Assembly: GCA_963796955.1 (NCBI GenBank)
Contig: CAWCNJ010000006.1
Location: 102,691 to 166,690 of the forward strand
Length of the DNA: 64,000 nt
From: Endomicrobiales bacterium
GTDB taxonomy: Bacteria; Elusimicrobiota; Endomicrobiia; Endomicrobiales; JALOBY01
Reading direction: 5' to 3'
Positions 27,201 to 40,509 of the stretch are shown here, in pieces. How positions within the stretch are numbered: position 1 is the first letter of the stretch; every line of letters begins with the position of its first letter. The position numbers and the translations under genes are program-made. The notes beneath the pieces were generated by a model. The model saw only the letters and a program-made list of their open reading frames with translations, ran no database searches and had not been told where the DNA came from.

Positions 27201-30200
27201 CGCCCATGCCGCCCTCTGCCAGCATAAACTTTAATTACAGCGGCTTTGCAACGCAGAAGAGTACCTTCACCATAACCTGGCAGCCAAGCCAGTACGATGT
27301 GGGCCACTCGTCTAACTCTATTTACTTTAATGTTGAAGCCTCCACATTCCCGACGACACTTGGCAGCGGCGACAAACGCATAGCCACCACCGGCCGTTTT
27401 GCACAATCCTGGAACTTCGGCAGCCCCAACCTTGGCAGCTTCATACGCCCGGCTATCTCCACCAGCTGGGCCGGCGCAACAGGCACAAGCATTGTGGGCT
27501 ATACTTTCGCGCCCTCAACCAGCGCGTTCGTATATAACACCACATACTATTTCCGAATTCAGACAATTGATTCCGGCTTAATGCGCAGCACCTGGTCTGC
27601 CGAATGTAAATGCCAATCCGCCGTGCCGCCAGCCGTTGTAACAGACCTTTATGCTACCGCCGGCGGCATAGGTTCTGGCGCGGTAATGCTTACCTGGACA
27701 GCCCCCGGCGATGCCGGACAGACCGGAAACCTTACAGCAGGCTCGGCGTTTAAGATAGAATACTCCACTGTTGGCATTATCAATTCAAGCACATTCACTT
27801 CGCCGCCGGCAAATCTTGCGGTGAAGACGGTAACGATCTCAACCAACACCACCGCCATGAGCCTGCAAAGCTACAACATAACGGGCCTAATTGGCAGCAC
27901 CACCTACTGGTTCGCCTTGGAAACTGAAAATGCCGAGGGTGGCTGGTCCATCTGGCAATCATCAGCCGATGTTGCCGCCTACAACCTGTACGCCAGCACC
28001 TGCACGGCGTTTATACCGCCCGCCATGATATATCGTTCCGTTGGGCCCGGCAGCACAACTGCATTAGTTACGGGCGCGGGAAATGGGCTTGTTATTTCCG
28101 GCAGTACCGCGACATTCGATAGCGGCCTTCCAAATAAAGTAGGCGTAGGTGATGCCATACAGTACGATGCTAACAACGATGGTACTGTTGATGCTATTCT
28201 CTTTATTTCAAGCAGAACGTCGGCGACAAGTTATACTGTGCAAAGCGCTGATGGCAAAACTGCACCAACTGCTACATCGGTAAAAACCAACACCTGGTCG
28301 GTATTTAGATCGTACACATCTTTGCATAATGTGCTTCAGTCACTGACGGTAAACAGCGGCATTAGCGGCCTGGTAAGCGGTAGCGTTAACCCGGGCATAA
28401 ACCTGGTGTCAAATAATGTGCAGCTGAATATCGCCTGTTACGGTGATGCGGCCGACACCACCAAGGTAGCTTTTAGCGGAATGTGGGTAACAAGCCCATC
28501 GAATAAGATCAGGATATTTACACCAGTTTCCAGCGGCGAGGCCGGCGTCAGTCAGCGCCATACAGGTATATGGGATACGGGCAAATATTACATTGAGAGT
28601 GGCAATGGGCATATCCTCTTGTTAGAAGTTAACTATATAGTAGTTGATGGTTTGCAAGTACATCTTAACTCAACTAGCAGTTCCGATACACGAGCAATAG
28701 GAATGAGTACACCCGCAGGCGCTTGCGATATCACTGTTGAGAACTGTATAGTAAGAGGTTCTACGAGTACCAGTAATACATATGACTACTTCGGTGGCAT
28801 TGTTGATGGAGGCGGAAGCGGAACTGGCGTGATAAAGATAGTAAACAATATAGTATATGATTTCGCTGCGGGTGGCGGGGGGATTACTCACGTTGGCATT
28901 GCAGGGGTTGATGGCGGTGTCTGGTACTACGTTTATAATAATACGGTATATAATTGTAAGGATGGTTTATTTTTTGGCGGTAACGACACTCTTAAAAATA
29001 ACATCTCGTATGGAAACTCAGAGTCAAATTACAACAATGCCGGTGTTGGCAATAATAATAACCTTTCCGGCCCTACGCTGGCGGATGCACCAGGTACAAA
29101 CCCCCTTAACAGCGCTCCCGTGCAATTTGTTGATGCCAACCGCTACGACTTGCGCCTTAGTGTAAGCGAAAGCTCCGCTACCGATAAGGGCGCTAACCTT
29201 TCGTCCGACGCCAATTTGCCATTCTCCACCGATGTTCTCGGCAACGCCCGCCCATACGGCGCGGCATGGGACGTTGGCGCATTTGAAAATTATCAAAATG
29301 TTCTCGGCGTGCCGCAGACTCTTACGGTTACCAATGTATATTATAGTTCTGTAACAGTTACATGGAACCTTATCAACGGCGCGACAGGCTATACGCTGAT
29401 CGCCTCTACATCGTCCAATATTCCGGTTACCGTATCCGCTTCAACCACCACGACCGGTGTAAATGCAACATCCGCGACGGTATACTCTCCCGCATTAAGC
29501 CTAGCAACCACCTATTATTTCTTCGTTCAGTCCACCGGCAACGCACTCGCAAGCGCCTGGTCGCTGCCGGTCTCAACAGTAACCTTGTCTGGCGACATCA
29601 CACCGCCAGCCGCGATAACCAATCTTGCGGCAGTCACCGGTTTTGGCCCCGGCACCATTAACCTTTCCTGGACCTCACCCGGTGATGACGGCATAACTGG
29701 CAATATTACCGGCGGCGCGTATAAGATACGTTACTCCACCTATACCCCAACATCGTGGAATGATGCCGATACCAGCTGGGCTGACTACGTCAATAAATAT
29801 CAGATAACGATAGCCACAAATTCTGTTCCAGGTGTAACGCAGTCTTATCCGCTTACCGGACTTACCGCTGGCGTAACCTATTACATTCGCGCCTGGACGC
29901 GTGACGAAGTGGGCGTAGACAGCACCAGCTGGAACGGCAACTGGTCGGCGCTGTCAAACGGCGCCACAAGCTGGGCGCAGATGGATACGGCGCCAAACAC
30001 CCCAATCAACCTTGTGCAGATAGACGGCACGCTGGGCAATATCTCTTCATTTACGTGGACAAACTCCGGCGTAATAACGTCGTCGTTCACACTGAGCGAC
30101 CCAGATAGCGGCCAGCAGATTAAATATCATATCCAAATAACCACTGTTTCCAGCAACGGTCTTGCCACGTGGACCAGCGGCTATTTCCTGAATTATACCT

Positions 30201-33200
30201 CGCCGTTATTGAATCAGGGCACAACCACTTACACCTGGCCCGCGATGACAGCCGGGAACTTCTACTGGTGGCGCGTCTGGGCGGAAGACAGTTATGGTTT
30301 AACATCTGCGACAACAACTGCCTTGATGAGCGGCGGTCCGGCAGTCTTTGCTTACAAAACCGCGTATGACGCAAAATATATAGAGGTTAACCCGGGCTGG
30401 GGAGTTGGGGGCAACGCCCATGGATCTTCAATTAAGTGGGGCGATATAGAAAATGACGGTTACCAGGATCTGATGGTGGCGGGCGAAAATCAGATTGGAG
30501 GCGAAGAGTTCTGCATTTATGATAACGCCAAAAATGGTTCCTTTAATGCTTCACCAATACATCCTAAACCGGGTTTCGGGGTGTCATGGTCGCCTTCCTG
30601 CGCTTGGGGCGACGTTAACAACGACGGCATTCAGGATGTGGCGGTTATAGGCGCCTCCGCTGATGATGTTTCTGGTTATACATTCAGGGTCTTTGCGAGC
30701 AATGGGAACGGCACGTTTGGCGCCGCCCAGGAGCCTACTGCCAACTGGGGCGAAGAAAATGCGGGCATAGCTTTGGGTGATTTTGACAACGATGGCTGCC
30801 TTGATGTTGTTGTTAGCGGCGCGGACGATGCTAAGGTGTCGGCCAATTTTAGAATTTATCGCAATAACGGCGACGGCACTTTCGGCCCTAACTTTATAAG
30901 GCCGGATATACCGCTTGAAAGCTCGGGTGATGAAAACGGCGGCGGCGACACATTGGCGTGCGGCGACTACAATAATGACGGTCTTATGGATATAGCGATT
31001 TCCTGGCCGACAGGCCTTGTACGAGTCTATAAAAACAATGGCGATCTTTCATTTGCCCATTTGACCAATGATATTTGTTCGTTCTTTGATTCCAATATTG
31101 CCTGGGGGGATTACAACAATGATGGATACCTTGACCTGTTTGTAGCAGGCCATGGTTTTACCGGCGTATTTCACAATAAAGGCGATGGCACGTTCGACTC
31201 TTCCGTAAATATTGCCGGTAATAATACTTTTACAGGAATTTCAGGCCAGGCGCCACTGTCACTTTGTGTCGGAGATTATGACAACGATGGCAATCTAGAC
31301 CTTGCCGCCGCCGGCCTTGACTATGCTGCCGGTACTGCGCGGAAATTGTATTTGTTCCACAACAACGGCCATGGCGCGTTTGACAGCGGCCCCGTTGAGA
31401 CGATGCCTGGCTGGGGTGTTGTAGATTGTTCGCTTGCCTTCGCGGATTACAACAACGATGGCGGCCTTGACCTGGCTGTTTCCGGGGCAGACAACAATAA
31501 TATAGCCCGCTGCTGCGTCTTTAATAACATGGAAGCCCAGATGGGCAATGCCAATACGCCGCCCATGCCGCCCTCTGCCAGCATAAACTTTAATTACAGC
31601 GGCTTTGCAACGCAGAAGAGTACCTTCACCATAACCTGGCAGCCAAGCCAGTACGATGTGGGCCACTCGTCTAACTCTATTTACTTTAATGTTGAAGCCT
31701 CCACATTCCCGACGACACTTGGCAGCGGCGACAAACGCATAGCCACCACCGGCCGTTTTGCACAACCCTGGAACTTCGGCAGCCCCAACCTTGGCAGCTT
31801 CATACGCCCGGCTATCTCCACCAGCTGGGCCAGCGCGCCCGGCACCTCAATGGTCGGTTATACGTTTGCGCCCTCCACCAGCGCCTTCTTGATGAACACA
31901 ACATGTTATTTCCGTATTCAGACGATAGATTCCGGCCTTGCGCGCAGTACCTGGTCAACGGAGAGTTCGGTGTATGTGTGTGGTTCTCCTACGGTGCCTG
32001 TGCTTGTTTCGCCGTTAGACAATTATGCTACAAACCAAATGACCGTTACATTCAATTGGGCTGACTCAACGGACACGATCTCAAATTCCAATTACACACT
32101 CAGGCTATCATCGTCTCCCGATTTCTCAGGAGTAACCTATTCATCTAATACCGTAAATATGTATGCCTCAATGGCCTTGACTACCAGTAAATGGTATTGG
32201 AGCGTTCGGGCGGGTAACCCGGTGGGCGCCTACAGCGCGTGGTCGTCAACGTGGTCGGTGGTGGTAGACACCCTAGCGCCGAGCGTGCCGATACTAACAT
32301 CGCCACTAGATAATTTCACAACCAACCAGATGGTGCTGACATTTGGCTGGAGCAGCGCGACCGATAACCTGACCGGTGTGAATGATTACACGCTGAGGCT
32401 TTCTACTGCGCCGGATTTCACGGGCGTAACGTATTCATCGATAACAGCGAACATTGTAGCCCAAATGTCGCTGACAACTGGCCATTGGTTCTGGGCAGTG
32501 CGTTCATTAGATAACGTAGGAAATTATTCAGCCTGGGCCTCGACATACACGCTGATTGTTGACACAACACCGCCGACGGTGCCTATCCTTACCGGCCCTC
32601 TGGACGGCTCAACGACCAATCAGACGGTGTTGACGTTCAACTGGGGCATATCCACGGATGACATAACAGGCCTGGCTAACTACACGCTTACCTTATCAAC
32701 AGCAGCTGATTTCAGTGGGGTAATATATTCGTCAATTACGACGAACACATCAGCCGCGATGACTATCCAGAGCTCCGATAAATGGTATTGGACGGTGCGT
32801 TCAGTCGATAATGCTGTAAATTATTCAGCATGGGCGAGCACGTGGTCGGTGGTCGTTGATACGCATGCTCCGACGGTACCGATACTTATAACGCCGCTTG
32901 ATAACTTCACAACGAACCAAATGACGCCTGCATTCGCCTGGCAAGGTTCAACGGATACGCTTTCAGGCATAGCGAATTATACGTTGCGCTTGTCGACCGC
33001 GCCAGATTTTAGCGGTACTATATACAGCTCAACAACAGCCAACACCCTTGCCAGCAGGGCGTTAGTTTCGTGCCGGTGGTACTGGTCGGTTCGAGCCGCA
33101 AACAATTCCGGCAACTACAGCGCCTGGTCGTCAACGTGGTCGGTGGTCATAGATACCGTATCCTCAAGCATACCGGTACTAACGGCGCCGTTAGATAACT

Positions 33201-36200
33201 ATACTACGAACCAAATGACGCTGACGTTTAACTGGAATATATCGATGGACAATCTGTCCGGCGTGAACGGCTATACGCTGCAGCTTTCAACGGCTCCCGA
33301 TTTCACCGGCGTGACGTATTCGTCGATAACAGCGAACAATTCAGCCGTAATGGCGTTGACAACGAACAAATGGTATTGGACGGTGCGTTCGCAAGACAAT
33401 GCGGCGAACTATTCAGCGTGGGCTTCAACGTGGTCGGTGGTCGTGGACACGATAGCGCCGACAATGCCGATACTAACGACGCCGCTGGACAACTTCACCA
33501 CGAACCAGATGACACTGGCGTTTAACTGGGGAAGCGCGACGGACAACCTTTCCGGTGTGTCCGGCTATACGCTGAGGTTGTCGACAGCAGCCGATTTCAG
33601 TGGGGTGATAATGTTGTCGGTAACCGATAACACCGCTGCCACAATGAACCTGACTTCTAACAAATGGTACTGGACGGTCCGTTCAGGCGACAACGCGGGC
33701 AACTACAGCACGTGGGCATCCACGTATTCTCTGGTGGTGGACACGGTAGCATCAACCGTGCCGCTGCTGCTTTCGCCGTTGGATAACTTTGCGACGAACC
33801 AAATGACGCTGTCGTTCAGCTGGAGCAGCGCAACGGACAATTTAACGGGTGTGAATGATTATACGGTGCAGTTGTCTACAGCGGCGGATTTCACCGGTGT
33901 AACCTATTCTTCAATCACAGCGAACACGGCAGCTCAAATGGCGCTGACCTCCGACCGGTGGTACTGGACAGTACGCTCACTGGACAACGCGGCCAACTAT
34001 TCAGCCTGGGCCTCGACATGGTCGCTGGTAATAGACACAACACCGCCAACGGTGCCTATCCTTACCAACCCGCTGGATGGTTCGACAACCAACCAGACGG
34101 TTTTAACGTTTAACTGGGGTGCCTCGACGGATGACATAACAGGCCTTGCCGGCTACACCCTGCGGTTATCAACAGCGCCTGATTTCAGTGGGGTGATATA
34201 TTCGTCAGTTACCGGAAACACCGCAGCAAGAATGACTATTCAGAGCTCCGACAAATGGTATTGGTCGGTGCGGTCAGTTGATAATGCTGAGAACTATTCA
34301 GCGTGGACGAGCACGTGGTCGGTGGTGGTAGACACGCGTGCGCCGACCGTGCCGCTGCTGCTTTCACCATTGGACAACTTCACCACAAACCAGATGACAC
34401 TGGCGTTCAATTGGCAGGGCTCAACGGACACGGTTTCAGGTATTACGAACTATACGCTGCGGTTATCGACGGCCCCCGACTTCAGTGGTACGACGTATAG
34501 CTCAACAACGGCCATCACCGCAGCCATCATGAACTTAACGACTAACAAATGGTACTGGTCGGTACGCGCCTTAAATAATTCGGGCAACTATTCCAACTGG
34601 TCGTCAACATGGGCGGTGATTATGGATACTGTAGTGCCGAGCGTGCCGATATTGACCTCGCCGCTGAATAATTTCACAACGAACCAAATGACGCTGGCGT
34701 TCAACTGGAACAGCGCGACCGACAATCTGACAGGTGTGAACGATTACACACTGCGGCTTTCTACCGCGCCAGATTTCACTGGTGTAACATATTCATCAAT
34801 AACAGCGAACACCGCAGCCCAGATGGCAATGACCTCCGGCCGGTGGTACTGGACGGTGCGTTCGCTGGATAACGCGGCTAACTACAGCGCCTGGGCATCT
34901 ACGTATACGCTGGTGGTGGACACAACACCTCCGACGGTGCCGGCCCTCACTGGCCCTCTGGATGGCTCAACGACCAACCAGACTATGGTAACATTCGGCT
35001 GGAATTCTTCAACAGATGACTTAACCGGTGTGGCATGCTATACCTTGCGATTCTCGACAGCGCCTGACTTTAGCGGGGCGATATATTCATCAGCCACGAC
35101 AAATACTATTGCTGCAATGACAATACCTGCTTGTGCAAAGTGGTACTGGACAGTGCGTTCCAGTGACAATGCCGGGAATTATTCGGCGTGGGCTAGTACG
35201 TGGACGGTACTCGTCGATACACGTGCCCCGACCGTGCCGCTGCTGCTGTCGCCGCTGGACAATTACACCACGAACCAGATGGCGCTGACGTTCAGCTGGC
35301 AGGGCTCAACGGATACGCTTTCGGGTGTTGCGGATTATACGCTGCGAATATCTACCGCGCTGGATTTTAGCGGTACAGTATACAGTTCAACAACGGGCAA
35401 TACTCTGGCCGGCATGACACAGGTTTCAAACAAATGGTATTGGTCGGTGCGTGCCGCAAACAATTCCGGTAACTACAGCGCCTGGTCGTCAACGTGGTCG
35501 GTAGTGATCGATTCCACGCCATCAAGCGTACCGGTGCTGACGGCGCCGTTGGATAATTATACAACGAATCAAATAACGCTGGCGTTCAGCTGGAACAGTG
35601 CGACCGACAATATATCCGGCGTGTCCGGTTATACGCTACGGTTATCTACTGCCTCAGATCTCAGCGGGGTGGTGTATTCATCGGTGACGGCAAACAATGC
35701 GGCTGTCATGATGTTGTCGACGAACAGATGGTACTGGACGGTGCGCTCGGTGGACAATGCAGCGAACTATTCTGCCTGGGCGTCAACGTGGTCGGTGATC
35801 ATTGACACCGTTGTGCCTAACGCGCTGAACGACCTTGCAGCCGCCCCGGGTTTTGCGCTGGGCAGCATAGCTCTGCACTGGACTTCGCCGGGTGATGACG
35901 GCCCAAGCGGCGCTATTATCGGTGGTTACTACAAAGTGCGGTATTCTACGTATACCACCGCCTCGGGAGCTTTCTGGACGGATGCGGCGGCGAACTGGGT
36001 GGACCCGGTCAACAAATATCAGATAACGATCGCAACTAATACGAATGTCGGCGATACACAATCGTACACCTTGAGCGGTTTAACGCAGGGCGTTACCTAT
36101 TATATTCGTGCCTGGACGCGAGACGAAGTTGGCGTTGACAGCACGACTTGGACCGGCAATTGGTCGGCGTTGTCGAACGGGGCGACATGCTGGGCGGCCT

Positions 36201-38653
36201 GCGTGGGGATACCGCAGAATTTAACGGTGAGCAGGGTGTACCAGAGTTCCATAGCGGTTACCTGGGATATGATAGCCAACGCGACCGGATATACGCTGGC
36301 AGCATCGACGTCGCCTAACAATCCTGTTACTGTCTACGCCTCCACAACCACACTGGGTGTTAATGCGATCAGCGCAATTGTTCTGAACCCCGCGTTACAG
36401 CCGGCAACGACGTATTACCTGTTCGTAAAGGCAAACGGCAATGGCGGGGAAAGCGGGTGGTCCACATCTGTATCGACAGTAACGCCGGATTATCTGCCGG
36501 GTGCTATAACAAACCTTTCGGCGCTGACAGGACAAGGCGCCGGCTCGATAGATCTGAGCTGGACAGCGCCGGGGACGGATGGTTACAACGGAAACATCGT
36601 CGGCGGCGTGTACAAGATACGCTATTCAACCTATACAACGGCAGCCGGGACATTCTGGACGGACGCTGCAGGGAACTGGACTGACCCGGTGAATAAATAT
36701 CAAATCACTATTAACACGAACACGGCGCCCGGCGAAGCGCAATCGTACCTGTTGTCGGGTCTCGGCCAGGGTGTGACCTACTACATTCGCGCCTGGACGC
36801 GTGATGAGGTTGGGATAGACAGTACGACCTGGAACGGCAATTGGTCGGCGGTGTCGAATGGCGCGACCTGCTGGGCTATGCGGGTAAAGACCCTGCCGCC
36901 GCCACCGGTAACTGACCTGACAGCCGTTAATGGTTTAAACGAGGGAAATGTGCTTCTTACCTGGACGGCGCCCTCGGCCTCTACATCCGCGCCGGTCACG
37001 GTGTCGTTGTATGAAGTCAGGGCCGCCACGTTCAGCGTCGGCGCCCTTACCGACGATACAACGGCCTGGTGGAACGCAGCGCCCTTCATCCATACGTTCC
37101 CGGAGCCCGGAACGCCCGCGAACCCCGATGCCATCACTCTTACCGGCCTGGCGGTAAGCACCTCGTGGTATTTCGCTATTGAGAGCGTGGGTCTAGCCGG
37201 GACCGTTTCGTTGATAGACGCAAATTCTTCGACGCACAACAGCCAGGCGTTCGTATTCACCACTGATGTGCAACCGGTACCTCCTACAGGGCTGACGGTG
37301 GTTGCCAGTACTTCGCCTATTGTTGTTCTAAAATGGGACGATATGAGAAGCTTCCAGGGATATCTGGACTTCGACCGTTATCAAATATGGCGTTCGTTAA
37401 CTTTTGCGCCGCAATCGTCGTTCGCTTCCATAGGCACCAGTACGAATACGGTCTTTATCGACGAAGCTGTCAGCGCCGGCGCCACGTATTATTATTTCAT
37501 AGTAGGGGTCGACAGCGCGCCGCAAGTGCTGGTCAGCAGCCCTTCGGCGGTTGTAACCGCGGTGGTAACGGTGCCGCGTAAGAAGACCGATATAACGCAG
37601 CCCCTGCCCCCTTCCGGCATACAGATAGCCGTTGTTGACGCGCATCCCGTTATTTCCTGGGATATGCCTCAATATAATACCGACGGCACGCAGTGTGTAG
37701 ACCAGGCCTCAAGCGTTATTTATCGCACGACTGGTCTGGACGATCCGTGGGATAACGTTGCCGCCATACCCTATGCCGGCGGTGTCGGCTGCCAGTGGAC
37801 GGATACCGCGATCGACCTGAGTAACTCGGCTGTCTATTATTACAAGGTGCAATGCGTCGATACCAGCGGGAACGCCAGCGCCGCTTCCATGTATTGCGAC
37901 ACCAGCCGCGACCTTAACCTGATCGTAGAATCGTCTGATAAACAGGTGAATCTTGTTATGCCTCAAAGTGAAGCAGGCCTGTTGTACAGGCGCGGTCCGA
38001 ACAAGGAAAATATCGATATCGTCGTGGATCAGGAAACAATGCCGGCGGATCCTGCCATTCTCCTGCAATTCGAATTTAAGGCCGTTACCGCCGGCACACG
38101 TCAAAAGATAAGCAGTTTTATGTTCGATAAGCCGCTTAACAAGGTCGTGTGGCAATTCTCGCAAAACCCTGTGTTCGGCTCAGGCAAACGCGTTAACTTA
38201 AGCGCTGCTCCCGTAAATATCGCGCAGGACATTTCCATGTTCTGGCACAGCGGCGTTGAATGGATAAAACTTAACAAATTAACGAATACGAATTCCATGC
38301 AAGTGTCGGTCAGACATCTGGGCAAATTCATGATCAAGCGTTCAATCGCCGCCACCAGTTTCTCAATGACAAAAGTTTTTCCGACGATATTTACCCCTAA
38401 CGGTGATCACCGCAACGATTATGTGGTATTCCAGTATGAAAACCCGAAAGATGACGCCGTTAGAGGAAAAATATATACTCCGGAAGGGGCTTTTGTAAGC
38501 AACCTGGTTAAATCCGATGATAACTCCTCGCTGATCTGGGACGGCACCAGAGACGGCGGCAAGGTAGCGGAGCCTGGTGCGTACGTCTATCAGATAGAGG
38601 TGATAGGCTCCGACGCGAAGGTGATCAACGGGGTAATAATATTGGCGAAATAA
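12200..38653 (+). CDS. giant FG-GAP/VCBS + FN3-like repeat surface protein, gene A, main fragment (8817 aa) with type-B T9SS-like C-terminal domain
   Basis: Uninterrupted 26.4-kb ORF. It holds eight 7-bladed FG-GAP propellers (DxDxDG motifs such as WGDYDNDGNLD), many FN3-like modules, a beta-helix insert, 13 tandem 98-aa modules and a C-terminal FTPNGDHRND...WDG...GAYVYQIEV domain. ATG 12200 is probably not a real start; it is a continuation of the ORF from 5190. Confidence 0.92.
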   Translation: MASRAEDSFGLTSSTSTALVSGGLAVLAYKTPFDSRYVEPTPGWGCGHYGSALAWGDLNDDGYQDLAVSGIIGTTPYTRIYKNNKDGTFSAYSTLPGGVDAGCPELQFSDFNNDGKMDLLVAGWPGSDPGIERIYLGNGDGTLNPAYVDAMPGFGRYWVSAKLGDYDNDGNLDIAIMGADDAGPGVSTFRIYRNNGNGAFSPNYIEPETGWGLCTQAPGWNYVGGRLLWGDYDNDGDLDLAVCGDDVNDNQLMRVYHNSGSGNHFGPAHELQVSDINDISWIDYDNNGYLDIAAFSQAAQKTRIYRNNGNGSFNTTPLEIFPGISMQNVAIAVGDYDNDGNSDLFLTGNTNTQGDIAGVYRNRGDGTFDQSIVSPLPLWGINGCGSIALSDYNNDGGLDMAVDGFGSGGDLSLRVFKNMEAQLGNANTAPVPPGTANINFNYSASKSTFTITWQPSQYDIGHSSNSVFFNVEASTSPTTLSTDKTRITAPDHFVEPWNFGSSNLGNFVRPAVSTSWAGVTGTSMHGFTLAPSTNTWLLNTTTFYFRIQTIDSGLMRSTWSAEFSCFASSTSNLAPNAPTNLAQLDGTHVSLSSFGWTNSGTIISSFTLTDPDDGQQVRFNLQITSVTTNGAADWTSIFASTRSALLNQGTTTYSWPTLNPNAFYWWRAWTEDSYGLTSATSAALGVNGSSGTAVLAYDTFFDPHTVRLDPSAGTGLWGGNIISGDFDNDGYQDIATCGANAVASAGHLDVLFYDHVSGTFGSPVIQGNMWGHIQTADFNNDGSLDIVAIVEDFNDYSNRVYTINNLGGRVFGTPTDISPGLSPSITNATVACGDYDNDGSPDIAVAGTIGGGAHMYALHNNGNGSFDPTPRDILYPGNGTSAIGGLAWGDYNNDGYLDLLATDNGYNYCVFKNNSNCTFNYVSLSAGADHYGAWADYDNDGNIDIVISGAVVRNKGDGSANPFDPSLVVIDPNCSLYAGDLAVGDLNNDGNIDMAIFGEYNYQASDCRMQAYLNKGNGSFDPQQHAFMPGLGLYDGGITLADFDGDGDLDMAACGMDSSGNLFCGLFTSKYTQMFSANTAPVPPAISSMTFVYSGYTTAKSTFTITWHPAQYDVGHSSNSVYFNVEASTFPTTLSTDRLRLATTGHYQEAWNFGTPNMGNFIRPSVSTSWAGVTGTQMVGYLFQPSTSAFTFNTTYYFRVQTIDSSLARSTWSVEQSYYCGDTTPPAALTNLAAITGFGPGTINLTWTSPGDDGISGNIVGGAYKIRYSTYTPSSWNDAASNWTDYLNKYQITIATNSTPGVTQSYLLTGLTGGVTYYVRAWTRDEVGVDSTSWNGNWSALSNGATCWAQINHAPNAPTNLAQLDSSLVNLSSFSWTNSGTIISSFTITDPDAGQQVKYHIQITTVSSSGLATWTSGYFLNYTSSLLNQGTTTYTWSALTAGNFYWWRVWTEDAGGLTSSTSTLLGVSGSGGPAVLAYKTMFDPVALQPDPGFSPNGQVDVSSVWGDFDNDGYQDIAVTGNNYTGEVLFYDHTSGTFPAKTQIGQLSGRIQAVDYNNDGSLDLVFAGYDNSVYEQRCRVIKNLGGKAFAAPADVVSGLTVGNFMIAAADYDNDGYADIALCGGGTGNALFVYTIHNNGDATFGNVVLLDTGGNSYYGYVPVAWGDINNDGYLDLLANMSSTRELCVYKNNCNGTLNHTPIVPVPAMSYNSQVAFADFNNDGNLDIVLTGQPGINFIKNTGSGNNPFDPSYTTVAGNATGGYFGIGDLNNDGYPDVMLEGENNYHSDDLNFMAYLNKSGNFDQDYVEVVPGGGVDRGSITFADFDADGDLDVLRQGMDANSVTSLSVFKSKYADMNGANIAPVPPSGLACQPVYATTGSTVTVTWPVAQYDAGISSCALSFQVVISSVPMTLDTSKKLVTAPGAFLNSWTSEGDGYGSFNRPAVKAWGLEPAVKFGYQMRISTTQIAVATTYYYRVQTIDSSLARSTWSAESIIYFVANSSPAAITNLSALTGNSAGEISLSWASPGADGAMNDIYGGAFKIRYSTYTTASAGFWLDAASNWTDQANKYQVTINTNTTPGAIQYYTLVGLLPGVTYYVRTWTRDEVGVDSTSWNGNWSTLSNGATAWAMTTTMPAGITDLVATNNSALSTVLLTWTAPGGNGQTAGLLSGSAFKIAYSTVNVISADNFNVLPSTMAIQTITISTVAAAMSPQSYNVGGLVNNTKYWFAIKTMNSVGNWSVWQSSADVAADNTLASTVCSYANVAPTISSLQTLNGSFIPINWTNAGTVISSFTISDANVGQLVRYNVQITSLTTNGAADWSGIFVSTRSALVNQGVETFTWPALNSNATFYWWRAWAEDINGAVSSTTTVSVSGDKALVANRSMFDPGYIALDAGTPAPDYGKTVTFGDFNGDGYQDIATAGYRDAGGYTDITRVFLNNGTGDGTFNASYITPPLQAGNTRNIMRWGDFNNDGNLDLVLGGFNKRLAICQNNGAGDFNNPPIYLDPDASFWCCNGAGAVGDVDNDGQLDIVVSGNTNTSVLMRIYRNNGDGTFTQSEPQAGWGTNTGALSLVDVDNNGSLDIAMGGIDTNSAPAFRIYRNNGNGTYTSYITPETIDTPFTSIYTAWADFDNDGLLDCALEGDGVVRQYHNNGNNTFTRSSITSDVYYNGAIDAADLNSDGFVDVIVTGRDAGFIRDLKTYLNNGNGTFAAGDSILPGWGVGGTNYYDNGSMEAADTNNDGFPDLAAYGEDTAHTVSLRVFTNKEAALGNTNTAPVPPGISNMTFTYSASRSTFTVTWQPSRYDVGHSSNSVYYNVEVSTYPTTLRSDKKRIVNSNKFVETWDFGSPNLGSFIRPSVSTSWAGVSGTSMVGYTIAPSTNNYLLNATTFYFRIQTIDSGLMRSTWSAEFSCLASTNIAPAGPAGITDLYAANNAGISGISLTWTASGDAGQSGNLTSGSAFKIEYSTVGIITTGNFDTPPANLAVTTINISTTTTAQSRQSWSLPGLLNNTTYWFAIKTENSEGQWSTWQSSADVAAYNLFSSTVCLYSNVAPDAPANLVQIDGTLGNVSSFTWTSSGNIVSSFTITDPNGGQQVRYHIQVSTVSDFVSGLATWTSGYFLNYTSSYLNQGTTTYAWPALTAGKFYWWRAWVEDAYGLASSTSSVLLSGGTAAFAYKTSFDPQGSNPIPWTANASANGQFTFGDYNNDGYPDLAIWGDDPTAKLHVYNNLGGGSFNATPVQPASGFGVDHTSNDACSWGDFNNDGYLDLAVSGWGSGSAYTCEVFKNNGSGGFAATPILPITGWGVAYSPSVAWGDINNDGNLDLAVMGGYNAVNFLRIFKNKGDGTFDTNYIEPTPGWSPKSGYINGSLTFADINNDGAMDLIVGVDAPGTEGRVYLNKGDGTFNPAYVSIDAAKTVCGDLDNDGWIDLAMSEYNNIRIYTNNHSGGFTTSTLPNSNYNDGILACGDFDGDGFLDLAAAGQVLNNNANSASLKIIRNNGAGSYAAAVDVFPGWGLFSSCIGAIDYENDGDLDIAVCGTDRNNSSNVFRILKNTQAQMSNANVAPTPPAGITALSSYDLNIASITLCWTPAQYDVSHSSNSIYYNVEMSTFPTTLSGDNLRLATNGRYTLPWDFGNQTLGSYVRPPVKQWPGSSQPTHGTAFNVSLAALGANPTYYYRVQTIDSGLMRSTWSAEYQVCIPAPSAPNAPTGLTQYIVGGSTLVTFGWAGKTGDVVASSFTITDPNGSTQVKYHIQITSVTPQNSPLWSQGLFVDYTSGWLTQGSTTYSWPAPPNGGRYWWRVYAINQSSVASSAATLLLDGSNPVISLKTDIDPIGADIVPGLGVTDGSLELGDFDNNGTLDLAVIGWNGTGQICRVYKNNGDGTFNQTPVSPITGFGAERGQAAWGDFNNDGYLDLAVCGNGSTRSCYVFRNKGNSTFDSTPIQPQTGFTARWAAIAWGDFNGDGYLDLAVTGRDDSNNYKFYTFNNFGNGSFNQTPVEPDPGWGVGNYQSGLACADYDNNGTLDLAITGLAQNGSGYARIYKGYGNGTFNPAFVNPDVNSDTFLGTNAFADYNNDGNLDLAIAAGTFRIDTNKGDGTFNATPVMPEGSGGYQRAATNGYMASLAWGDLNNDGKPDLVMNGATIGGTNTSRTYTNNGNGTFTAADISPGWGVNGAVAIGDIDNDGDEDIIAEGTQASNSAIYLRAFRNRNNDMGNVNVAPSAPSGMLSQVSYSVTSSTIIITWPPSQYDSGMSSCSLSYQVAVATMSMTLASNQTLIQSPTSFMTPWASEGDSYGTFNRPPVKVWGTDVTPKHGYQLNLSTNSIKANTTYYYRVQTIDSSLARSNWSTEFTYFTGTPPSGVTDLYATAGGIGTGAVMLTWTAPGDAGQIGNLATGSAFKIEYSSVGIINSSTFTSPPASLAVKSITISTNTTAMSPQSYNVTGLIGSTTYWFTLETENAEGVWSVWQSSADVAAYNDFAWAYTNYVNLAPNAPFNLAQIDGSLGNISSFTWTNSGNIVSSFTITDPNVGDQVRFDIQITSVTTNEAADWTRLFVSTRSALMNQGTTTYTWPTLNPNAFYWWRVWAEDSFGLTSATSAALGVIGSTGPAVVAYKTPFNAAYLEPTPGWGFGWWTALAWGDLNGDGYQDLAVIGTDVSYTRTLRVYLNNGDGTGSMNPSYIVPEAGVGLALGDLAWGDFNNDGNMDLAVTGFNGSDPGLLRVYVNNGSGGFSASHVDPIPGWGRYGSAVAWGDYDNDGNLDLAMMGSDGGPVSDGVFRIFRNKGDGTFDPNFIEPQTGWGMSSGRMCWADYNNDGDLDISLCGNNTSGATEVRVYRNNGNGTFNPTPAFVKSGIGDIAWGDYSNGGFLDMCVYDMAAGIQIYSNTGSGSLSGTPTNICSDGGGMWSIKLAAADYDNDGNIDVAASGQIGSLNMGNVRFLHNNGNSTFSGSRSTPLPGLGINGTLALSDNNNDGDVDIAAAGVSQAGDRCFLGIFQNMEAQMGNANTPPMPPSASINFNYSGFATQKSTFTITWQPSQYDVGHSSNSIYFNVEASTFPTTLGSGDKRIATTGRFAQSWNFGSPNLGSFIRPAISTSWAGATGTSIVGYTFAPSTSAFVYNTTYYFRIQTIDSGLMRSTWSAECKCQSAVPPAVVTDLYATAGGIGSGAVMLTWTAPGDAGQTGNLTAGSAFKIEYSTVGIINSSTFTSPPANLAVKTVTISTNTTAMSLQSYNITGLIGSTTYWFALETENAEGGWSIWQSSADVAAYNLYASTCTAFIPPAMIYRSVGPGSTTALVTGAGNGLVISGSTATFDSGLPNKVGVGDAIQYDANNDGTVDAILFISSRTSATSYTVQSADGKTAPTATSVKTNTWSVFRSYTSLHNVLQSLTVNSGISGLVSGSVNPGINLVSNNVQLNIACYGDAADTTKVAFSGMWVTSPSNKIRIFTPVSSGEAGVSQRHTGIWDTGKYYIESGNGHILLLEVNYIVVDGLQVHLNSTSSSDTRAIGMSTPAGACDITVENCIVRGSTSTSNTYDYFGGIVDGGGSGTGVIKIVNNIVYDFAAGGGGITHVGIAGVDGGVWYYVYNNTVYNCKDGLFFGGNDTLKNNISYGNSESNYNNAGVGNNNNLSGPTLADAPGTNPLNSAPVQFVDANRYDLRLSVSESSATDKGANLSSDANLPFSTDVLGNARPYGAAWDVGAFENYQNVLGVPQTLTVTNVYYSSVTVTWNLINGATGYTLIASTSSNIPVTVSASTTTTGVNATSATVYSPALSLATTYYFFVQSTGNALASAWSLPVSTVTLSGDITPPAAITNLAAVTGFGPGTINLSWTSPGDDGITGNITGGAYKIRYSTYTPTSWNDADTSWADYVNKYQITIATNSVPGVTQSYPLTGLTAGVTYYIRAWTRDEVGVDSTSWNGNWSALSNGATSWAQMDTAPNTPINLVQIDGTLGNISSFTWTNSGVITSSFTLSDPDSGQQIKYHIQITTVSSNGLATWTSGYFLNYTSPLLNQGTTTYTWPAMTAGNFYWWRVWAEDSYGLTSATTTALMSGGPAVFAYKTAYDAKYIEVNPGWGVGGNAHGSSIKWGDIENDGYQDLMVAGENQIGGEEFCIYDNAKNGSFNASPIHPKPGFGVSWSPSCAWGDVNNDGIQDVAVIGASADDVSGYTFRVFASNGNGTFGAAQEPTANWGEENAGIALGDFDNDGCLDVVVSGADDAKVSANFRIYRNNGDGTFGPNFIRPDIPLESSGDENGGGDTLACGDYNNDGLMDIAISWPTGLVRVYKNNGDLSFAHLTNDICSFFDSNIAWGDYNNDGYLDLFVAGHGFTGVFHNKGDGTFDSSVNIAGNNTFTGISGQAPLSLCVGDYDNDGNLDLAAAGLDYAAGTARKLYLFHNNGHGAFDSGPVETMPGWGVVDCSLAFADYNNDGGLDLAVSGADNNNIARCCVFNNMEAQMGNANTPPMPPSASINFNYSGFATQKSTFTITWQPSQYDVGHSSNSIYFNVEASTFPTTLGSGDKRIATTGRFAQPWNFGSPNLGSFIRPAISTSWASAPGTSMVGYTFAPSTSAFLMNTTCYFRIQTIDSGLARSTWSTESSVYVCGSPTVPVLVSPLDNYATNQMTVTFNWADSTDTISNSNYTLRLSSSPDFSGVTYSSNTVNMYASMALTTSKWYWSVRAGNPVGAYSAWSSTWSVVVDTLAPSVPILTSPLDNFTTNQMVLTFGWSSATDNLTGVNDYTLRLSTAPDFTGVTYSSITANIVAQMSLTTGHWFWAVRSLDNVGNYSAWASTYTLIVDTTPPTVPILTGPLDGSTTNQTVLTFNWGISTDDITGLANYTLTLSTAADFSGVIYSSITTNTSAAMTIQSSDKWYWTVRSVDNAVNYSAWASTWSVVVDTHAPTVPILITPLDNFTTNQMTPAFAWQGSTDTLSGIANYTLRLSTAPDFSGTIYSSTTANTLASRALVSCRWYWSVRAANNSGNYSAWSSTWSVVIDTVSSSIPVLTAPLDNYTTNQMTLTFNWNISMDNLSGVNGYTLQLSTAPDFTGVTYSSITANNSAVMALTTNKWYWTVRSQDNAANYSAWASTWSVVVDTIAPTMPILTTPLDNFTTNQMTLAFNWGSATDNLSGVSGYTLRLSTAADFSGVIMLSVTDNTAATMNLTSNKWYWTVRSGDNAGNYSTWASTYSLVVDTVASTVPLLLSPLDNFATNQMTLSFSWSSATDNLTGVNDYTVQLSTAADFTGVTYSSITANTAAQMALTSDRWYWTVRSLDNAANYSAWASTWSLVIDTTPPTVPILTNPLDGSTTNQTVLTFNWGASTDDITGLAGYTLRLSTAPDFSGVIYSSVTGNTAARMTIQSSDKWYWSVRSVDNAENYSAWTSTWSVVVDTRAPTVPLLLSPLDNFTTNQMTLAFNWQGSTDTVSGITNYTLRLSTAPDFSGTTYSSTTAITAAIMNLTTNKWYWSVRALNNSGNYSNWSSTWAVIMDTVVPSVPILTSPLNNFTTNQMTLAFNWNSATDNLTGVNDYTLRLSTAPDFTGVTYSSITANTAAQMAMTSGRWYWTVRSLDNAANYSAWASTYTLVVDTTPPTVPALTGPLDGSTTNQTMVTFGWNSSTDDLTGVACYTLRFSTAPDFSGAIYSSATTNTIAAMTIPACAKWYWTVRSSDNAGNYSAWASTWTVLVDTRAPTVPLLLSPLDNYTTNQMALTFSWQGSTDTLSGVADYTLRISTALDFSGTVYSSTTGNTLAGMTQVSNKWYWSVRAANNSGNYSAWSSTWSVVIDSTPSSVPVLTAPLDNYTTNQITLAFSWNSATDNISGVSGYTLRLSTASDLSGVVYSSVTANNAAVMMLSTNRWYWTVRSVDNAANYSAWASTWSVIIDTVVPNALNDLAAAPGFALGSIALHWTSPGDDGPSGAIIGGYYKVRYSTYTTASGAFWTDAAANWVDPVNKYQITIATNTNVGDTQSYTLSGLTQGVTYYIRAWTRDEVGVDSTTWTGNWSALSNGATCWAACVGIPQNLTVSRVYQSSIAVTWDMIANATGYTLAASTSPNNPVTVYASTTTLGVNAISAIVLNPALQPATTYYLFVKANGNGGESGWSTSVSTVTPDYLPGAITNLSALTGQGAGSIDLSWTAPGTDGYNGNIVGGVYKIRYSTYTTAAGTFWTDAAGNWTDPVNKYQITINTNTAPGEAQSYLLSGLGQGVTYYIRAWTRDEVGIDSTTWNGNWSAVSNGATCWAMRVKTLPPPPVTDLTAVNGLNEGNVLLTWTAPSASTSAPVTVSLYEVRAATFSVGALTDDTTAWWNAAPFIHTFPEPGTPANPDAITLTGLAVSTSWYFAIESVGLAGTVSLIDANSSTHNSQAFVFTTDVQPVPPTGLTVVASTSPIVVLKWDDMRSFQGYLDFDRYQIWRSLTFAPQSSFASIGTSTNTVFIDEAVSAGATYYYFIVGVDSAPQVLVSSPSAVVTAVVTVPRKKTDITQPLPPSGIQIAVVDAHPVISWDMPQYNTDGTQCVDQASSVIYRTTGLDDPWDNVAAIPYAGGVGCQWTDTAIDLSNSAVYYYKVQCVDTSGNASAASMYCDTSRDLNLIVESSDKQVNLVMPQSEAGLLYRRGPNKENIDIVVDQETMPADPAILLQFEFKAVTAGTRQKISSFMFDKPLNKVVWQFSQNPVFGSGKRVNLSAAPVNIAQDISMFWHSGVEWIKLNKLTNTNSMQVSVRHLGKFMIKRSIAATSFSMTKVFPTIFTPNGDHRNDYVVFQYENPKDDAVRGKIYTPEGAFVSNLVKSDDNSSLIWDGTRDGGKVAEPGAYVYQIEVIGSDAKVINGVIILAK
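12209..12210 (+). other. frameshift site 1 (one T missing) joining ORF 5190..12233 to ORF 12200..38653
   Basis: The observed sequence is gca ggg cgg agg. Inserting T gives gca tgg gcg gag gat agc = AWAEDSFGLTS, matching the module consensus FYWWRAWAEDS(F/Y)GLTS seen near 14180-14230 and 25915-25965. Confidence 0.85.
12270..13455 (+). repeat. 7-bladed FG-GAP/VCBS beta-propeller A4
   Basis: Seven blades counted, from LAWGDLNDDGYQDLAV to IALSDYNNDGGLDMAV. Ends at FKNMEAQLGNANT. Confidence 0.85.
13456..13912 (+). repeat. 'QYD' FN3-like module (exemplar; one follows every propeller)
   Basis: EAQLGNANTAPVPP..FNYSASKSTFTITWQPSQYDIGHSSNSVFFNVEASTSPTTL..WNFGSSNLGNFVRPAVSTSWAGVTGT..TTFYFRIQTIDSGLMRSTWSAE. 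It has FN3-like W/Y/YFR.Q..D landmarks with a ~45-aa insertion. Confidence 0.6.
14277..15410 (+). repeat. FG-GAP/VCBS beta-propeller A5
   Basis: Runs from IISGDFDNDGYQDIAT to ITLADFDGDGDLDMAA. Ends at FTSKYTQMFSANT. Confidence 0.8.
15862..16248 (+). repeat. FN3 module type D (exemplar)
   Basis: PPAALTNLAAITGFGPGTINLTWTSPGDDG..GGAYKIRYSTYT..NKYQITIATNSTPGVTQSYLLTGLTGGVTYYVRAWTRDEVGVDSTSWNGNWSALS. Similar copies occur near 11110, 18190, 29590, 35815, 36490, 46090, 49580, 54600, 59700 and 62490. Confidence 0.75.
16250..16617 (+). repeat. 'WWR' beta-sandwich module (exemplar; one precedes every propeller)
   Basis: NHAPNAPTNLAQLDSSLVNLSSFSWTNSGTIISSFTITDPDAGQQVKYHIQITTVSS..LNQGTTTYTWSALTAGNFYWWRVWTEDAGGLTSSTS. 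Approximate starts of the other copies in gene A: 5340, 7270, 9200, 11910, 13915, 18970, 21340, 23280, 25650, 29980. In gene B: 42200, 44090, 46870, 50360, 52680, 55390, 57780, 60490, 62880. Confidence 0.6.
16618..17750 (+). repeat. FG-GAP/VCBS beta-propeller A6
   Basis: Runs from SVWGDFDNDGYQDIAV to ITFADFDADGDLDVLR. Ends at FKSKYADMNGANI. Confidence 0.8.
18581..18972 (+). repeat. FN3-like module type E (exemplar)
   Basis: PAGITDLVATNNSALSTVLLTWTAPGGNGQTAGLLSGSAFKIAYSTVNVIS..SPQSYNVGGLVNNTKYWFAIKTMNSVGNWSVWQSSADVAA. Similar copies occur near 11500, 20930, 25250, 27620, 46480, 49970, 52300, 55000, 57390 and 60100. Confidence 0.7.
19321..20485 (+). repeat. FG-GAP/VCBS beta-propeller A7
   Basis: Runs from VTFGDFNGDGYQDIAT to MEAADTNNDGFPDLAA. 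Ends at FTNKEAALGNTNT. Confidence 0.8.
21700..22850 (+). repeat. FG-GAP/VCBS beta-propeller A8
   Basis: Runs from FTFGDYNNDGYPDLAI to IGAIDYENDGDLDIAV. Ends at LKNTQAQMSNANV. Confidence 0.8.
23651..24815 (+). repeat. FG-GAP/VCBS beta-propeller A9
   Basis: Runs from LELGDFDNNGTLDLAV to VAIGDIDNDGDEDIIA. Ends at FRNRNNDMGNVNV. Confidence 0.8.
26005..27170 (+). repeat. FG-GAP/VCBS beta-propeller A10
   Basis: Runs from LAWGDLNGDGYQDLAV to LALSDNNNDGDVDIAA. Ends at FQNMEAQMGNANT. Confidence 0.8.
27167..27472 (+). repeat. 306-bp intragenic near-identical repeat, copy 1 (partner 31526..31831)
   Basis: 304 of 306 nt are identical by line comparison; the mismatches are at 27198 (a/g) and 27407 (t/c). 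It covers the propeller/QYD junction MEAQMGNANTPPMPPSASINFNYSGFATQKSTFTITWQPSQYDVGHSSNSIYFNVEAS... Confidence 0.9.
28008..29292 (+). other. right-handed parallel beta-helix (pectate-lyase-fold) insert domain in gene A
   Basis: The only copy in the window. PbH1-like turns: ITVENCIVRGS, IKIVNNIVYDF, YVYNNTVYNC, DTLKNNISYGN. The hallmark C-terminal cap is FVDANRYDLRLSVSESSATDKGANL..DVLGNARPYGAAWDVGAFEN. The N-terminal part is IYRSVGPGSTTALVTGAGNGLVISGSTATFDSGLP..VGDAIQYD. Confidence 0.7.
30338..31528 (+). repeat. FG-GAP/VCBS beta-propeller A11
   Basis: Runs from IKWGDIENDGYQDLMV to LAFADYNNDGGLDLAV. Ends at FNNMEAQMGNANT. Confidence 0.8.
31526..31831 (+). repeat. 306-bp intragenic near-identical repeat, copy 2 (partner 27167..27472)
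   Basis: See copy 1. The offset between copies is 4,359 nt. Confidence 0.9.
31984..35811 (+). repeat. tandem array of 13 copies of a ~98-aa (294-nt) Ig/FN3-like module
   Basis: The unit consensus is PTVPILTxPLDNFTTNQMTLxFNWxSATDNLxGVxxYTLRLSTAPDFxGVxYSSxTANTxAxMxLTxxKWYWTVRSxDNAxNYSAWASTWSxVVDT. Thirteen units were counted in the translation with no spacers. Sub-types recur in the order A-B-C(-D). Confidence 0.9.
38359..38650 (+). other. C-terminal sorting domain resembling the T9SS type-B / gliding-motility CHU_C domain
   Basis: FSMTKVFPTIFTPNGDHRNDYVVFQYENP..RGKIYTPEGAFVSNLV..LIWDGTRDGGKVAEPGAYVYQIEVIGSDAKVINGVIILAK*. It matches the remembered pattern FTPNGDG.ND ... I..R.G..V ... WDG...G ... 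G.Y.Y ... G.I.L at the extreme C-terminus. Confidence 0.6.
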
Positions 38654-40474: not shown

Positions 40475-40503
40475 TTGACTATGTTAACATTAGTGTGTAT
40501 AAT
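40475..40503 (+). promoter_or_regulatory. near-consensus promoter of ATPase gene 2, geometry implies a leaderless mRNA
   Basis: TTGACT (40475-40480), a 17-nt spacer, then TATAAT (40498-40503). The A of ATG 40510 is the 7th nt after the -10 hexamer, the same geometry as at 3798-3833. Confidence 0.55.
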
Positions 40504-40509
40504 TGTGGT

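Follow-up and report, generated by a model that had tools for sequence, protein, structure and literature searches.

An old, block-grown array of thirteen FN3-like domains in a giant, probably surface-anchored protein on an Elusimicrobiota-like contig

The 64,000-nt stretch of DNA analyzed here (the window) carries a 26-kb open reading frame (ORF), in which a run of mutually similar modules of ~98 aa lies not far from the C-terminus of the encoded protein. How did this array arise, does its length still change, and what does it do for the protein that carries it? A preliminary description, made from the sequence by eye, had counted 13 tandem units at 31984-35811 and regarded them as a plausible length-variable spacer. 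By anchoring the unit boundaries on the W-x-V-x-V-D-T motif we arrived at the same count and at coordinates that differ by at most 5 nt: the array comprises exactly 13 contiguous units of 98-99 aa each (98/98/99/98/98/98/98/99/98/98/99/98/98 aa in units 1-13) at 31979-35809 of the plus strand, which corresponds to aa 6594-7870 of the ORF 12200..38653. A profile HMM built from the units and used to scan the window in six frames returned exactly 13 matches (E-value 1e-45 to 1e-51 each) and no further units outside the array. The linkers between the units are short and proline-rich (V-D-T-x-P-P-x-V-P). The sub-type motifs quoted in the preliminary description were all found in the units named there, and the units fall into four types (A: 2, 7, 10; B: 3, 8, 11; C: 4, 9, 12; D: 5, 13), arranged in the order c-ABCD-d-ABC-ABCD:

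31979..35809, + strand: the array, 13 contiguous FN3-like units (HMM match for each unit, predicted fold)
31979..32272, + strand: unit 1, degenerate C-like, 63-67% aa identity to units 4, 9 and 12
32273..32566, + strand: unit 2, type A
32567..32863, + strand: unit 3, type B, 99 aa
32864..33157, + strand: unit 4, type C
33158..33451, + strand: unit 5, type D
33452..33745, + strand: unit 6, divergent A/D-like singleton
33746..34039, + strand: unit 7, type A
34040..34336, + strand: unit 8, type B, 99 aa, forms the closest pair with unit 3
34337..34630, + strand: unit 9, type C
34631..34924, + strand: unit 10, type A, used for structure prediction (pLDDT 96.3)
34925..35221, + strand: unit 11, type B, 99 aa, long branch
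35222..35515, + strand: unit 12, type C, mosaic
35516..35809, + strand: unit 13, type D

The same description held that the array had grown by duplication of blocks of several units rather than of single units, and proposed a tree of the units and a tandem-repeat search as checks. In neighbor-joining (NJ) trees calculated from the codon alignment of the units (300 bootstraps), units cluster by their position in the block, with {3,8,11} supported at 100%, {4,9,12} at 96%, {5,13} at 90% and {2,7,10} at 84%. Mean aa identity is highest between units separated by 8 (75.7%), 5 (70.0%) and 3 (68.9%) positions and amounts to 57-64% at all other lags, including 61.7% at lag 1; similarity at lags above one thus exceeds that between neighbors, which together with clustering by block position characterizes a higher-order (multi-domain) repeat. 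Units of the same type are never adjacent, and the probability that every A is followed by B and then by C by chance, with type counts fixed, is 420/14,414,400 = 2.9e-5. Type clustering, the lag peaks and the order of types all bear out growth by multi-unit blocks. Units 3 and 8, the best pair anywhere in the array, are 82% identical at the nt level (88% aa), slightly below the "about 85%" estimated by eye. Tandem Repeats Finder (TRF) gives nothing on the array, since neighboring units share no more than 56-71% identity at the nt level (55-68% aa).

All 13 units are closer to one another (minimum 55% aa identity) than to any of 662 units from outside (maximum 50%). Their amplification thus took place in this lineage and combined duplication of multi-unit blocks with intra-unit recombination. 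Starting from one ancestral unit, amplification first gave rise to types A to D; later, unequal recombination copied blocks of 3-5 units, and at least one of its breakpoints fell inside a unit. This was not clean block copying: the first ~137 nt of unit 12 are nearest to unit 9 and the remainder to unit 4, with a significant breakpoint (max-chi2 permutation P = 0.001). The duplications are old: dS between units of the same type ranges from 0.74 to 2.8 or is saturated, and exact repeats within the array do not exceed 32 nt. Self-matches of 88% or more over 150 nt or more were not detected inside it. Each copy has been held by purifying selection (same-type dN/dS 0.07-0.21). Since the copies are old and each of them is under purifying selection, the array is now a stalk that is stable and diversified, not a fast-changing one. 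Thus, of the suggested length-variable spacer, the stalk or spacer part is plausible, as it agrees with an FN3-like fold and with short linkers rich in proline, while length variability at present is not supported, given the dS values, the 32-nt limit on exact repeats and the low identity of neighbors. We found no orthologous array in the searched protein databases or contig collections; the sole relative, L082, is represented by a 3.8-kb contig ending before the array.

The fold of one unit, whose prediction had also been proposed, was modeled for unit 10 with AlphaFold2 from an alignment of 133 sequences, which yielded a confident eight-stranded structure (pLDDT 96.3, pTM 0.86). Foldseek searches of the PDB with this model identified FN3 domains (TM 0.7-0.78, probability 1.00), with matches that include the bacterial Fn3-like modules 3pdd and 3mpc, the exoHep N-domain 6lja and the adhesin SiiE 2yn5. 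The unit is therefore predicted to be an FN3-like beta-sandwich. A model of two consecutive units reached a pLDDT of only 43 and lends no support to rod geometry. At the sequence level no curated Pfam model covers the module family well. The fn3 model (PF00041, gathering cut-off 25 bits) matches neither units 1-3 at E<=0.1 nor unit 10 at E<=0.01, and the nearest curated model, Ig_Rha78A_N (PF25788), scores 18.8 bits on units 1-3 against a cut-off of 27.4. SusE (PF14292, cut-off 25.2 bits) does reach 29.6 bits on a three-unit fragment, in one stretch covering profile positions 25-81 of 106, which we read as a generic beta-sandwich resemblance. Among the 133 family members the weak Pfam matches are to Ig_Rha78A_N (80, best E-value 5e-10), Big_13 (42), SusE (32) and fn3 (18, at E<=0.01). 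The family numbers ~9,500 cluster representatives, among which giant proteins are frequent, and its members have 1 to 25 contiguous units; the residues conserved throughout it are the usual Trp and Tyr of the FN3 core and Asp and Asn in loops.

The protein that carries the array combines FG-GAP propeller clusters alternating with beta-sandwich domains, the array itself, FN3 domains and a C-terminal sorting-type domain, in this order. About 11 FG-GAP/FG-GAP_3 clusters lie N-terminal to the array, which ends ~950 residues from the C-terminus. The features that surround it are:

5190..12233, + strand: upstream ORF, 2347 aa, same repeat architecture, apparent N-terminal signal sequence (judged by eye)
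12200..38653, + strand: host ORF, 8817 aa (profile matches along the ORF)
31526..31956, + strand: beta-sandwich "X" domain just upstream of the array, shares 92.6% nt identity with 27167-27597
35810..37100, + strand: FN3-rich region just downstream of the array, three Pfam fn3 stretches (E-value 1.4e-19)
38381..38638, + strand: CHU_C / T9SS type-B-like sorting domain, borderline (profile scores)
38657..40354, + strand: PorV/PorQ-family-like beta-barrel gene with C-terminal TPR, starts 4 nt after the giant ORF

The location of the array just before a C-terminal FN3 and sorting region, as proposed earlier, is supported by the fn3 matches and by the CHU_C score of the terminal domain (31.4 bits, cut-off 27); the score of TIGR04131 is 25.5 bits with a cut-off of 35. 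The barrel gene stays below threshold with both models, at 61.8 bits for PorV_fam (cut-off 90) and at 18.5 bits for PorP_SprF (cut-off 22.3). The adjacency of cargo and partner is kept in L082, in which the partner is 71% and the C-terminal region 67% identical. The upstream ORF probably constitutes the genuine 5' portion of this gene, split off by a 1-nt frame disruption near 12207-12215, and joining the two would give a protein of ~11,150 aa. Because of this disruption at ~12.2 kb the array-containing ORF has no signal peptide as assembled. The disruption may reflect a recent pseudogene or an indel error in the assembly.

Duplication of several domains at a time is reported as the common mode of growth for domain repeats, and duplication of single domains as less common (Bjorklund, Ekman & Elofsson 2006, PMC1553488). 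In those repeats, as here (lags 3, 5 and 8), internal similarity peaks at a lag of more than one domain, a consequence of copying several domains at once. Block growth of the array is thus real, but ordinary for such arrays, and higher-order periodicity is already described for domain repeats. In titin and nebulin a regular super-repeat of 7 or 11 domains is matched to a partner filament. The array differs from these in being part of a bacterial surface protein, in its irregular block pattern and in carrying a recombination mosaic. Among its own relatives, tandem units in giant proteins with higher-order periodicity are common: P0012 has 14 units with period 5 and identities up to 100%, P0030 has 25 units with period 2, P0026 has period 4 and P0126 period 3. 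These sister arrays share the ~98-aa module and the motifs P-L-N/D-x-x-T-N-Q, F-x-W, Y-Y-W-R-V, D-N-A-x-N-Y and V-D-T, but their units are at most 50% identical to those of the window, their periods and ages differ, and several are much younger, with near-identical units.

Two other giant surface proteins are comparable to the host protein. SiiE of Salmonella (53 BIg domains, PDB 2yn5) matches the unit at a Foldseek TM of 0.65-0.72, although it belongs to a different sequence family (17-18% identity to the unit). Both are giant surface proteins, in the case of SiiE an adhesin, with long runs of ~100-aa beta-sandwich domains. SiiE is a type 1 secretion substrate, whereas the protein described here ends in a type-B-like T9SS domain. 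In this respect it is like the SprB/SprF pair of Flavobacterium, in which a huge repetitive surface protein with a CHU_C/type-B-like end is followed by a gene for a PorV/PorP-like barrel (PMC9143113). Unlike in that pair, the scores here are borderline, the partner resembles PorV/PorQ, has a TPR tail and is no clear PorP/SprF, and the contig appears to belong to Elusimicrobiota, not Bacteroidota. Its TypA/BipA gene is closest to Elusimicrobiota, with 80% identity of BipA to an Elusimicrobiota MAG and with other Elusimicrobia among the next-best matches at 73-74%. We found no paper reporting T9SS in Elusimicrobia.

Taken as a whole, the evidence makes it fairly probable that the array is an old, lineage-specific, block-grown FN3-like rod in a C-terminally anchored giant protein. 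A stalk is plausible in a protein whose C-terminal domain is T9SS type-B-like and whose neighboring gene encodes a PorV/PorP-like partner; proteins with type B CTDs anchor via PorP-like proteins (PMC9143113). The sorting domain and the adjacent barrel would hold the C-terminus at the outer membrane, and the 13 domains would act as a semi-rigid rod near the cell, roughly 45-50 nm long, that projects the distal part, with its ~11 propeller clusters, away from the cell. FG-GAP propellers play a role in integrins and related proteins, and by analogy the clusters distal to the array would be adhesive. With 13 contiguous FN3-like domains the array corresponds to what is called a fibrillar-adhesin stalk, and short proline-rich linkers are known to favor extended rods (PMC8201768). 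The conserved positions D31, D80, N84 and D97 might cluster at the domain junctions and bind Ca2+, which may stiffen the rod in a manner comparable to SiiE, a suggestion drawn solely from conserved Asp/Asn.

Stalks of the Periscope and fibrillar type (SasG, Rib, Sgo_0707; Whelan et al. 2021, PMC8201768) share with the array folded tandem domains, proline-rich linkers, the surface-protein context and a position between anchor and putative adhesive part, which makes a rod-like projection device likely here too, by analogy of layout. The same likeness could mean that the array expands and contracts between strains via near-identical repeats and so tunes the projection of the adhesive part, and the span of unit numbers in the family and the near-identical units of some sister arrays (up to 100% in P0012, 99% in P0030, 90% on average in P0128) point in this direction. 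However, the repeats of Periscope proteins share at least 80% identity (82-100% for neighboring SHIRT domains) and their number varies among strains, and the Periscope screen required both such identity and observed strain variation (PMC8201768). Adjacent units of the array, at 55-68%, fall below that level, even the best pair reaches only 82% nt, TRF detects nothing, and the exact-repeat lengths and same-type dS given above indicate old duplications; hence we consider present-day length variation of this kind quite improbable. Higher-order periodicity alone does not imply it, because age (dS) and the length of exact repeats must be checked. A different reading, which we regard as unlikely, is that the units are ligand-binding modules (e.g. 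for glycans), that types A-D differ in specificity and that A-B-C is a functional cassette. It could draw on weak similarities to carbohydrate-active contexts (SusE, Ig_Rha78A_N, the DUF4962/exoHep N-domain and the Fn3 of CbhA), and dN/dS of ~0.1 together with diagnostic residues fixed in each type, mostly in loops (12/20), would also fit units that bind ligands beyond mere spacing. Yet at 10-19% identity these are generic matches of the FN3/Ig fold, the conserved residues are those ordinary for FN3 domains, no binding motif is identifiable in the units, and the putative adhesive modules, the FG-GAP propellers, sit elsewhere in the protein.

Selection for the A-B-C(-D) order itself, as a structural super-repeat whose three or four types have distinct roles, is compatible with the type-specific residues, the purifying selection on all copies and the separation of units of the same type, but we hold it very doubtful. 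Roles that can be imagined for such an order are type-specific contacts with a periodic partner, be it a surface layer, a polysaccharide or a neighboring copy of the protein, or keeping near-identical domains apart to avoid inter-domain misfolding; if true, this would be a bacterial analog of the titin and nebulin super-repeats. It is extremely improbable that the number and order of units result from misassembly or that the array belongs to a decaying, functionless pseudogene. The window does contain two giant genes, each with a 1-nt frame disruption, which share a 1,163-nt segment at 98.8% identity, so that some trouble exists either in the assembly or at the locus. The array itself, however, has none of the repeats that mislead assemblers, its 3.8-kb frame is fully open within the 26-kb ORF, every unit is recognized with high significance, and dN/dS is far below 1. 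The unit count is thus unlikely to be an assembly artefact.

On the reading we favor, that of an anchored, old and block-grown stalk, the array is a textbook case of block duplication with later recombination and divergence, found in a giant surface protein from a lineage that is uncultured. With a dedicated model for the ~98-aa module, giant metagenomic adhesins would be annotated better, which is a modest practical gain. More broadly interesting, though beside the array itself, are the hints that an Elusimicrobiota-like contig encodes a type-B-like T9SS cargo together with its partner.

The array lies in an ORF of 8817 aa (12200..38653, + strand), of which residues 6594-7870 (nt 31979-35809) can be cut, by anchoring on the recurring motif W-x-V-x-V-D-T, into 13 contiguous units of 98, 98, 99, 98, 98, 98, 98, 99, 98, 98, 99, 98 and 98 aa. 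A profile HMM built from these units and run against the six-frame translation of the whole window retrieved exactly the same 13, each with an E-value of 1e-45 to 1e-51, and no further copies in the array ORF or in the neighbouring giant genes; the count in the preliminary description is therefore borne out by both procedures. Tandem Repeats Finder, a program of the kind recommended there as a check, reported no array in 28-40 kb, because adjoining units are too diverged (only 56-71% nt identity), and motif anchoring and the HMM were used instead. Pairwise identities and NJ trees (300 bootstraps, codon alignment) assign most of the units to four types.

Types of array units, with bootstrap support and within-type nucleotide identity
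Type A: units 2, 7 and 10; bootstrap 84%; 74-78% identity
Type B: units 3, 8 and 11; bootstrap 100%; 69-82% identity
Type C: units 4, 9 and 12; bootstrap 96%; 72-78% identity
Type D: units 5 and 13; bootstrap 90%; 77% identity

Unit 1 is degenerate and C-like and unit 6 is divergent and A/D-like, and with these two in lower case the order of the array reads c-ABCD-d-ABC-ABCD. Units eight positions apart (lag 8) share 75.7% aa identity on average; the means at lags 5 and 3 are 70.0% and 68.9%, and that of neighbours is 61.7%. The chance of three complete A-B-C runs, given the type counts, is P = 2.9e-5. The higher-order pattern is real: the A-B-C(-D) periodicity first read by eye is reproduced both by the clustering of units by type and by the identity peaks at lags 3, 5 and 8. 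The sub-type motifs listed at that time are correct, and the identity of units 3 and 8, then estimated at about 85%, is 82% at the nucleotide level (88% aa).

The units of the window are at least 55% identical to each other in aa sequence and at most 50% identical to 662 full-length units of other proteins, which argues that the whole array descends from one unit amplified in this lineage, or was homogenised in it. Synonymous sites are saturated in comparisons between types, and same-type pairs have dS of 0.74-2.8 and dN/dS of 0.07-0.21; these values indicate that the block duplications are old and that every copy has since been held by purifying selection. A clean three-block phylogeny can be ruled out, since within-type topologies conflict (the closest pairs in the NJ trees are 2+10, 3+8 and 4+12) and nearest-neighbour and max-chi2 tests reveal a mosaic. 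In a sliding window nearest neighbours switch along the units; the first ~137 nt of unit 12 are nearest to unit 9 and the remainder to unit 4 (max-chi2 permutation P = 0.001), this being the only breakpoint among nine tests to survive correction, while the others are marginal (P = 0.02-0.6). Conflicting topologies and mosaicism of this kind would be expected if unequal crossing-over or gene conversion had its breakpoints within units. Directly 5' of the array, a beta-sandwich domain (31526-31956) is 92.6% identical in nucleotide sequence to a copy 4.4 kb upstream (27167-27597), a duplication that must be far younger than any within the 13 units.

The array units match curated domain models poorly: SusE gave 29.6 bits along part of the profile, Ig_Rha78A_N 18.8 bits (under its cut-off) and the OmpL47 barrel an E-value of 0.016, and a PDB sequence search with the unit profile returned only a contactin-2 FN3 domain at E 0.72. 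In the suggested structure prediction of one unit, AlphaFold2, given an alignment of 133 diverse units, modelled unit 10 as a confident beta-sandwich (pLDDT 96.3, pTM 0.86) that Foldseek placed among FN3 domains (TM 0.7-0.78), with matches including bacterial Fn3-like modules, the exoHep N-domain and BIg domains from the adhesin SiiE. Searched exhaustively with a profile, 1.84 billion cluster representatives yielded 9,508 proteins at E<=1e-3 (3,233 of them at E<=1e-10, 553 at E<=1e-30). Many of these proteins are thousands of residues long, with up to 36 matched stretches each and a longest contiguous run of 25 units. When 133 family members were scanned singly, 80 matched Ig_Rha78A_N, 42 Big_13, 32 SusE and 18 fn3. 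The predicted fold and these matches point to an FN3-like domain family, abundant in metagenomic giant proteins, which no curated model fits well. Near-invariant positions in the 133-unit alignment are P3, P11, W26, D31, G35, Y39, F49, W74, D80, N84 and D97.

We infer that the array is a cell-proximal stalk. FN3-like domains have their N- and C-termini at opposite poles and a length of ~3.5-4 nm, so the 13 units would span ~45-50 nm between a C-terminal anchor and the distal propellers. Short proline-rich linkers connect the units, and linkers of this type favour extended arrays (PMC8201768). FN3 topology should place the four near-invariant Asp/Asn residues at the N-terminal pole of a unit and the C-terminus of the one before it, and one might guess that the junctions are stiffened by Ca2+, as in SiiE. 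A two-unit construct, modelled by AlphaFold2 from 12 aligned rows of window pairs, yielded no usable inter-domain geometry (pLDDT 43), and the extended arrangement is a proposal.

N-terminally of the array the giant protein carries FG-GAP repeats in clusters, with beta-sandwich domains after each cluster. Between propeller modules, within 28700-31978, we noticed by eye a single segment resembling a right-handed beta-helix, around ~29165-29287, where 'choice-of-anchor Q' also matches (31.4 bits, cut-off 25). The ORF before it (5190..12233) shares this repeat architecture and has, as judged by eye, a signal-like N-terminal sequence that 12200..38653 lacks; a 1-nt frame disruption near 12207-12215 (junction 12190-12233) separates it from the 8817-aa ORF, into which it runs. 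The upstream frame ends in ...FYAWRAGRRIASA* and the downstream frame resumes with ...AEDSFGLTS, fitting the internal repeat consensus FYWWRAWAEDSFGLTS; the junction thus reads F-Y-A-W-R-A, frame shift, A-E-D-S-F-G-L, where sister repeats have F-Y-W-W-R-A-W-A-E-D-S-F-G-L. Since the repeat sequence carries on across the junction, the two ORFs are probably one gene of ~33.5 kb (~11,150 aa) in which one base is missing, and this may reflect either an error in sequencing or a genuine frameshift.

A second giant FG-GAP gene (42068-61947; ORFs of 3153 and 3531 aa with a 178-nt overlap) is likewise split by a 1-nt deletion, at ~51295 (GGTTCTTGTG -> GGTTC-TGTG). The deletion falls inside a 1,163-nt segment (50714-51875) that is 98.8% identical to 5682-6844 in the 5' portion of the first giant gene, as would result from recent gene conversion between the paralogues or from a chimeric assembly. 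Repeats of the giant-gene families go on past the stop at 61947 (e.g. 62259-62486, 62486-62785, 62937-63236 and 63437-63736), hence this gene is likely longer than its ORFs and probably continues, after a further frame disruption, beyond the end of the window (61948-64000).

Directly after the array follow Pfam fn3 domains (E 1.4e-19), and the protein ends (38381-38638) in a CHU_C / T9SS type-B-like domain (31.4 bits, cut-off 27; TIGR04131 reached only 25.5 bits against a cut-off of 35), so the array does stand just before a C-terminal region of FN3 domains and a putative sorting domain, as had been described. Four nt past the stop of the giant ORF begins a partner gene (38657-40354, + strand), whose product combines a PorV/PorQ-family-like barrel (61.8 bits, under the cut-off of 90) with a TPR tail and weakly resembles PorP/SprF; PorP-like partners are thought to anchor proteins with type B CTDs (PMC9143113). 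The C-terminal region had no match in genome_contigs and matched in metagenome_contigs solely a 3.8-kb contig without the array, in which the cargo-partner pair is kept (40-1314 and 1562-3217; 67% and 71% identical, respectively). An AAA_14 + DUF4143 ATPase gene flanks the first giant gene and its partner on each side (3833-4972, 40495-41832), and G+C drops to 0.415 at 40-42 kb, compared with ~0.52 elsewhere. TypA/BipA (1964-3769) is 80% identical to that of an Elusimicrobiota MAG, with other Elusimicrobia among the next-best matches (73-74%); the closest BipA locus shows no synteny and no giant gene downstream. Our literature search for T9SS in Elusimicrobia found no relevant report, and a T9SS-like cargo encoded with its partner in a phylum other than Bacteroidota would merit separate attention.

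The suggestion that the array is a length-variable spacer fits the family over evolutionary time, in which unit numbers range widely, but is improbable for this array at present. Units are at most 82% identical in nt sequence, exact repeats reach no more than 32 nt, and self-matches of at least 88% over at least 150 nt are absent from the array, though present elsewhere in the window. Adjacent units are well under the at least 80% tandem identity used as a criterion for Periscope proteins (PMC8201768). This sequence evidence is against current length variability. An orthologous array for comparing unit numbers was not found in the collections searched: a word-indexed protein search gave 11 matches (best 38% identity), none with such an array, no close relative came up in the exhaustive profile search, and exact look-up of a neighbouring window protein returned no record.

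Near-identical units do occur in sister arrays of the same family, namely in P0012 (2858 aa; 14 units, some of them 100% identical), P0030 (3283 aa; 25 units, 99%) and P0128 (90% mean). The higher-order repeats of P0012 and of P0030, which has a strict period of 2 (84% vs 40% identity), are much younger than those of the window array. Another array-bearing gene (P0001, locus L001, 10001-11707) is broken up into adjacent ORFs of 1953, 568, 400 and 940 aa beside an IS110-family transposase. Clear periods above 1, most frequently 2, are seen in roughly a dozen of the 49 family arrays with 8 or more units; the period is 3 in P0126 and P0033, 4 in P0026 and 5 in P0012 and P0034. A function for the A-B-C order as such seems to us very improbable, and our observations do not require it. 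Duplication of multi-domain blocks is commonly observed in domain-repeat expansion (PMC1553488) and is not itself new; given the periods of the sister arrays, the block-duplicated array is a well-documented instance of this known mode of expansion.
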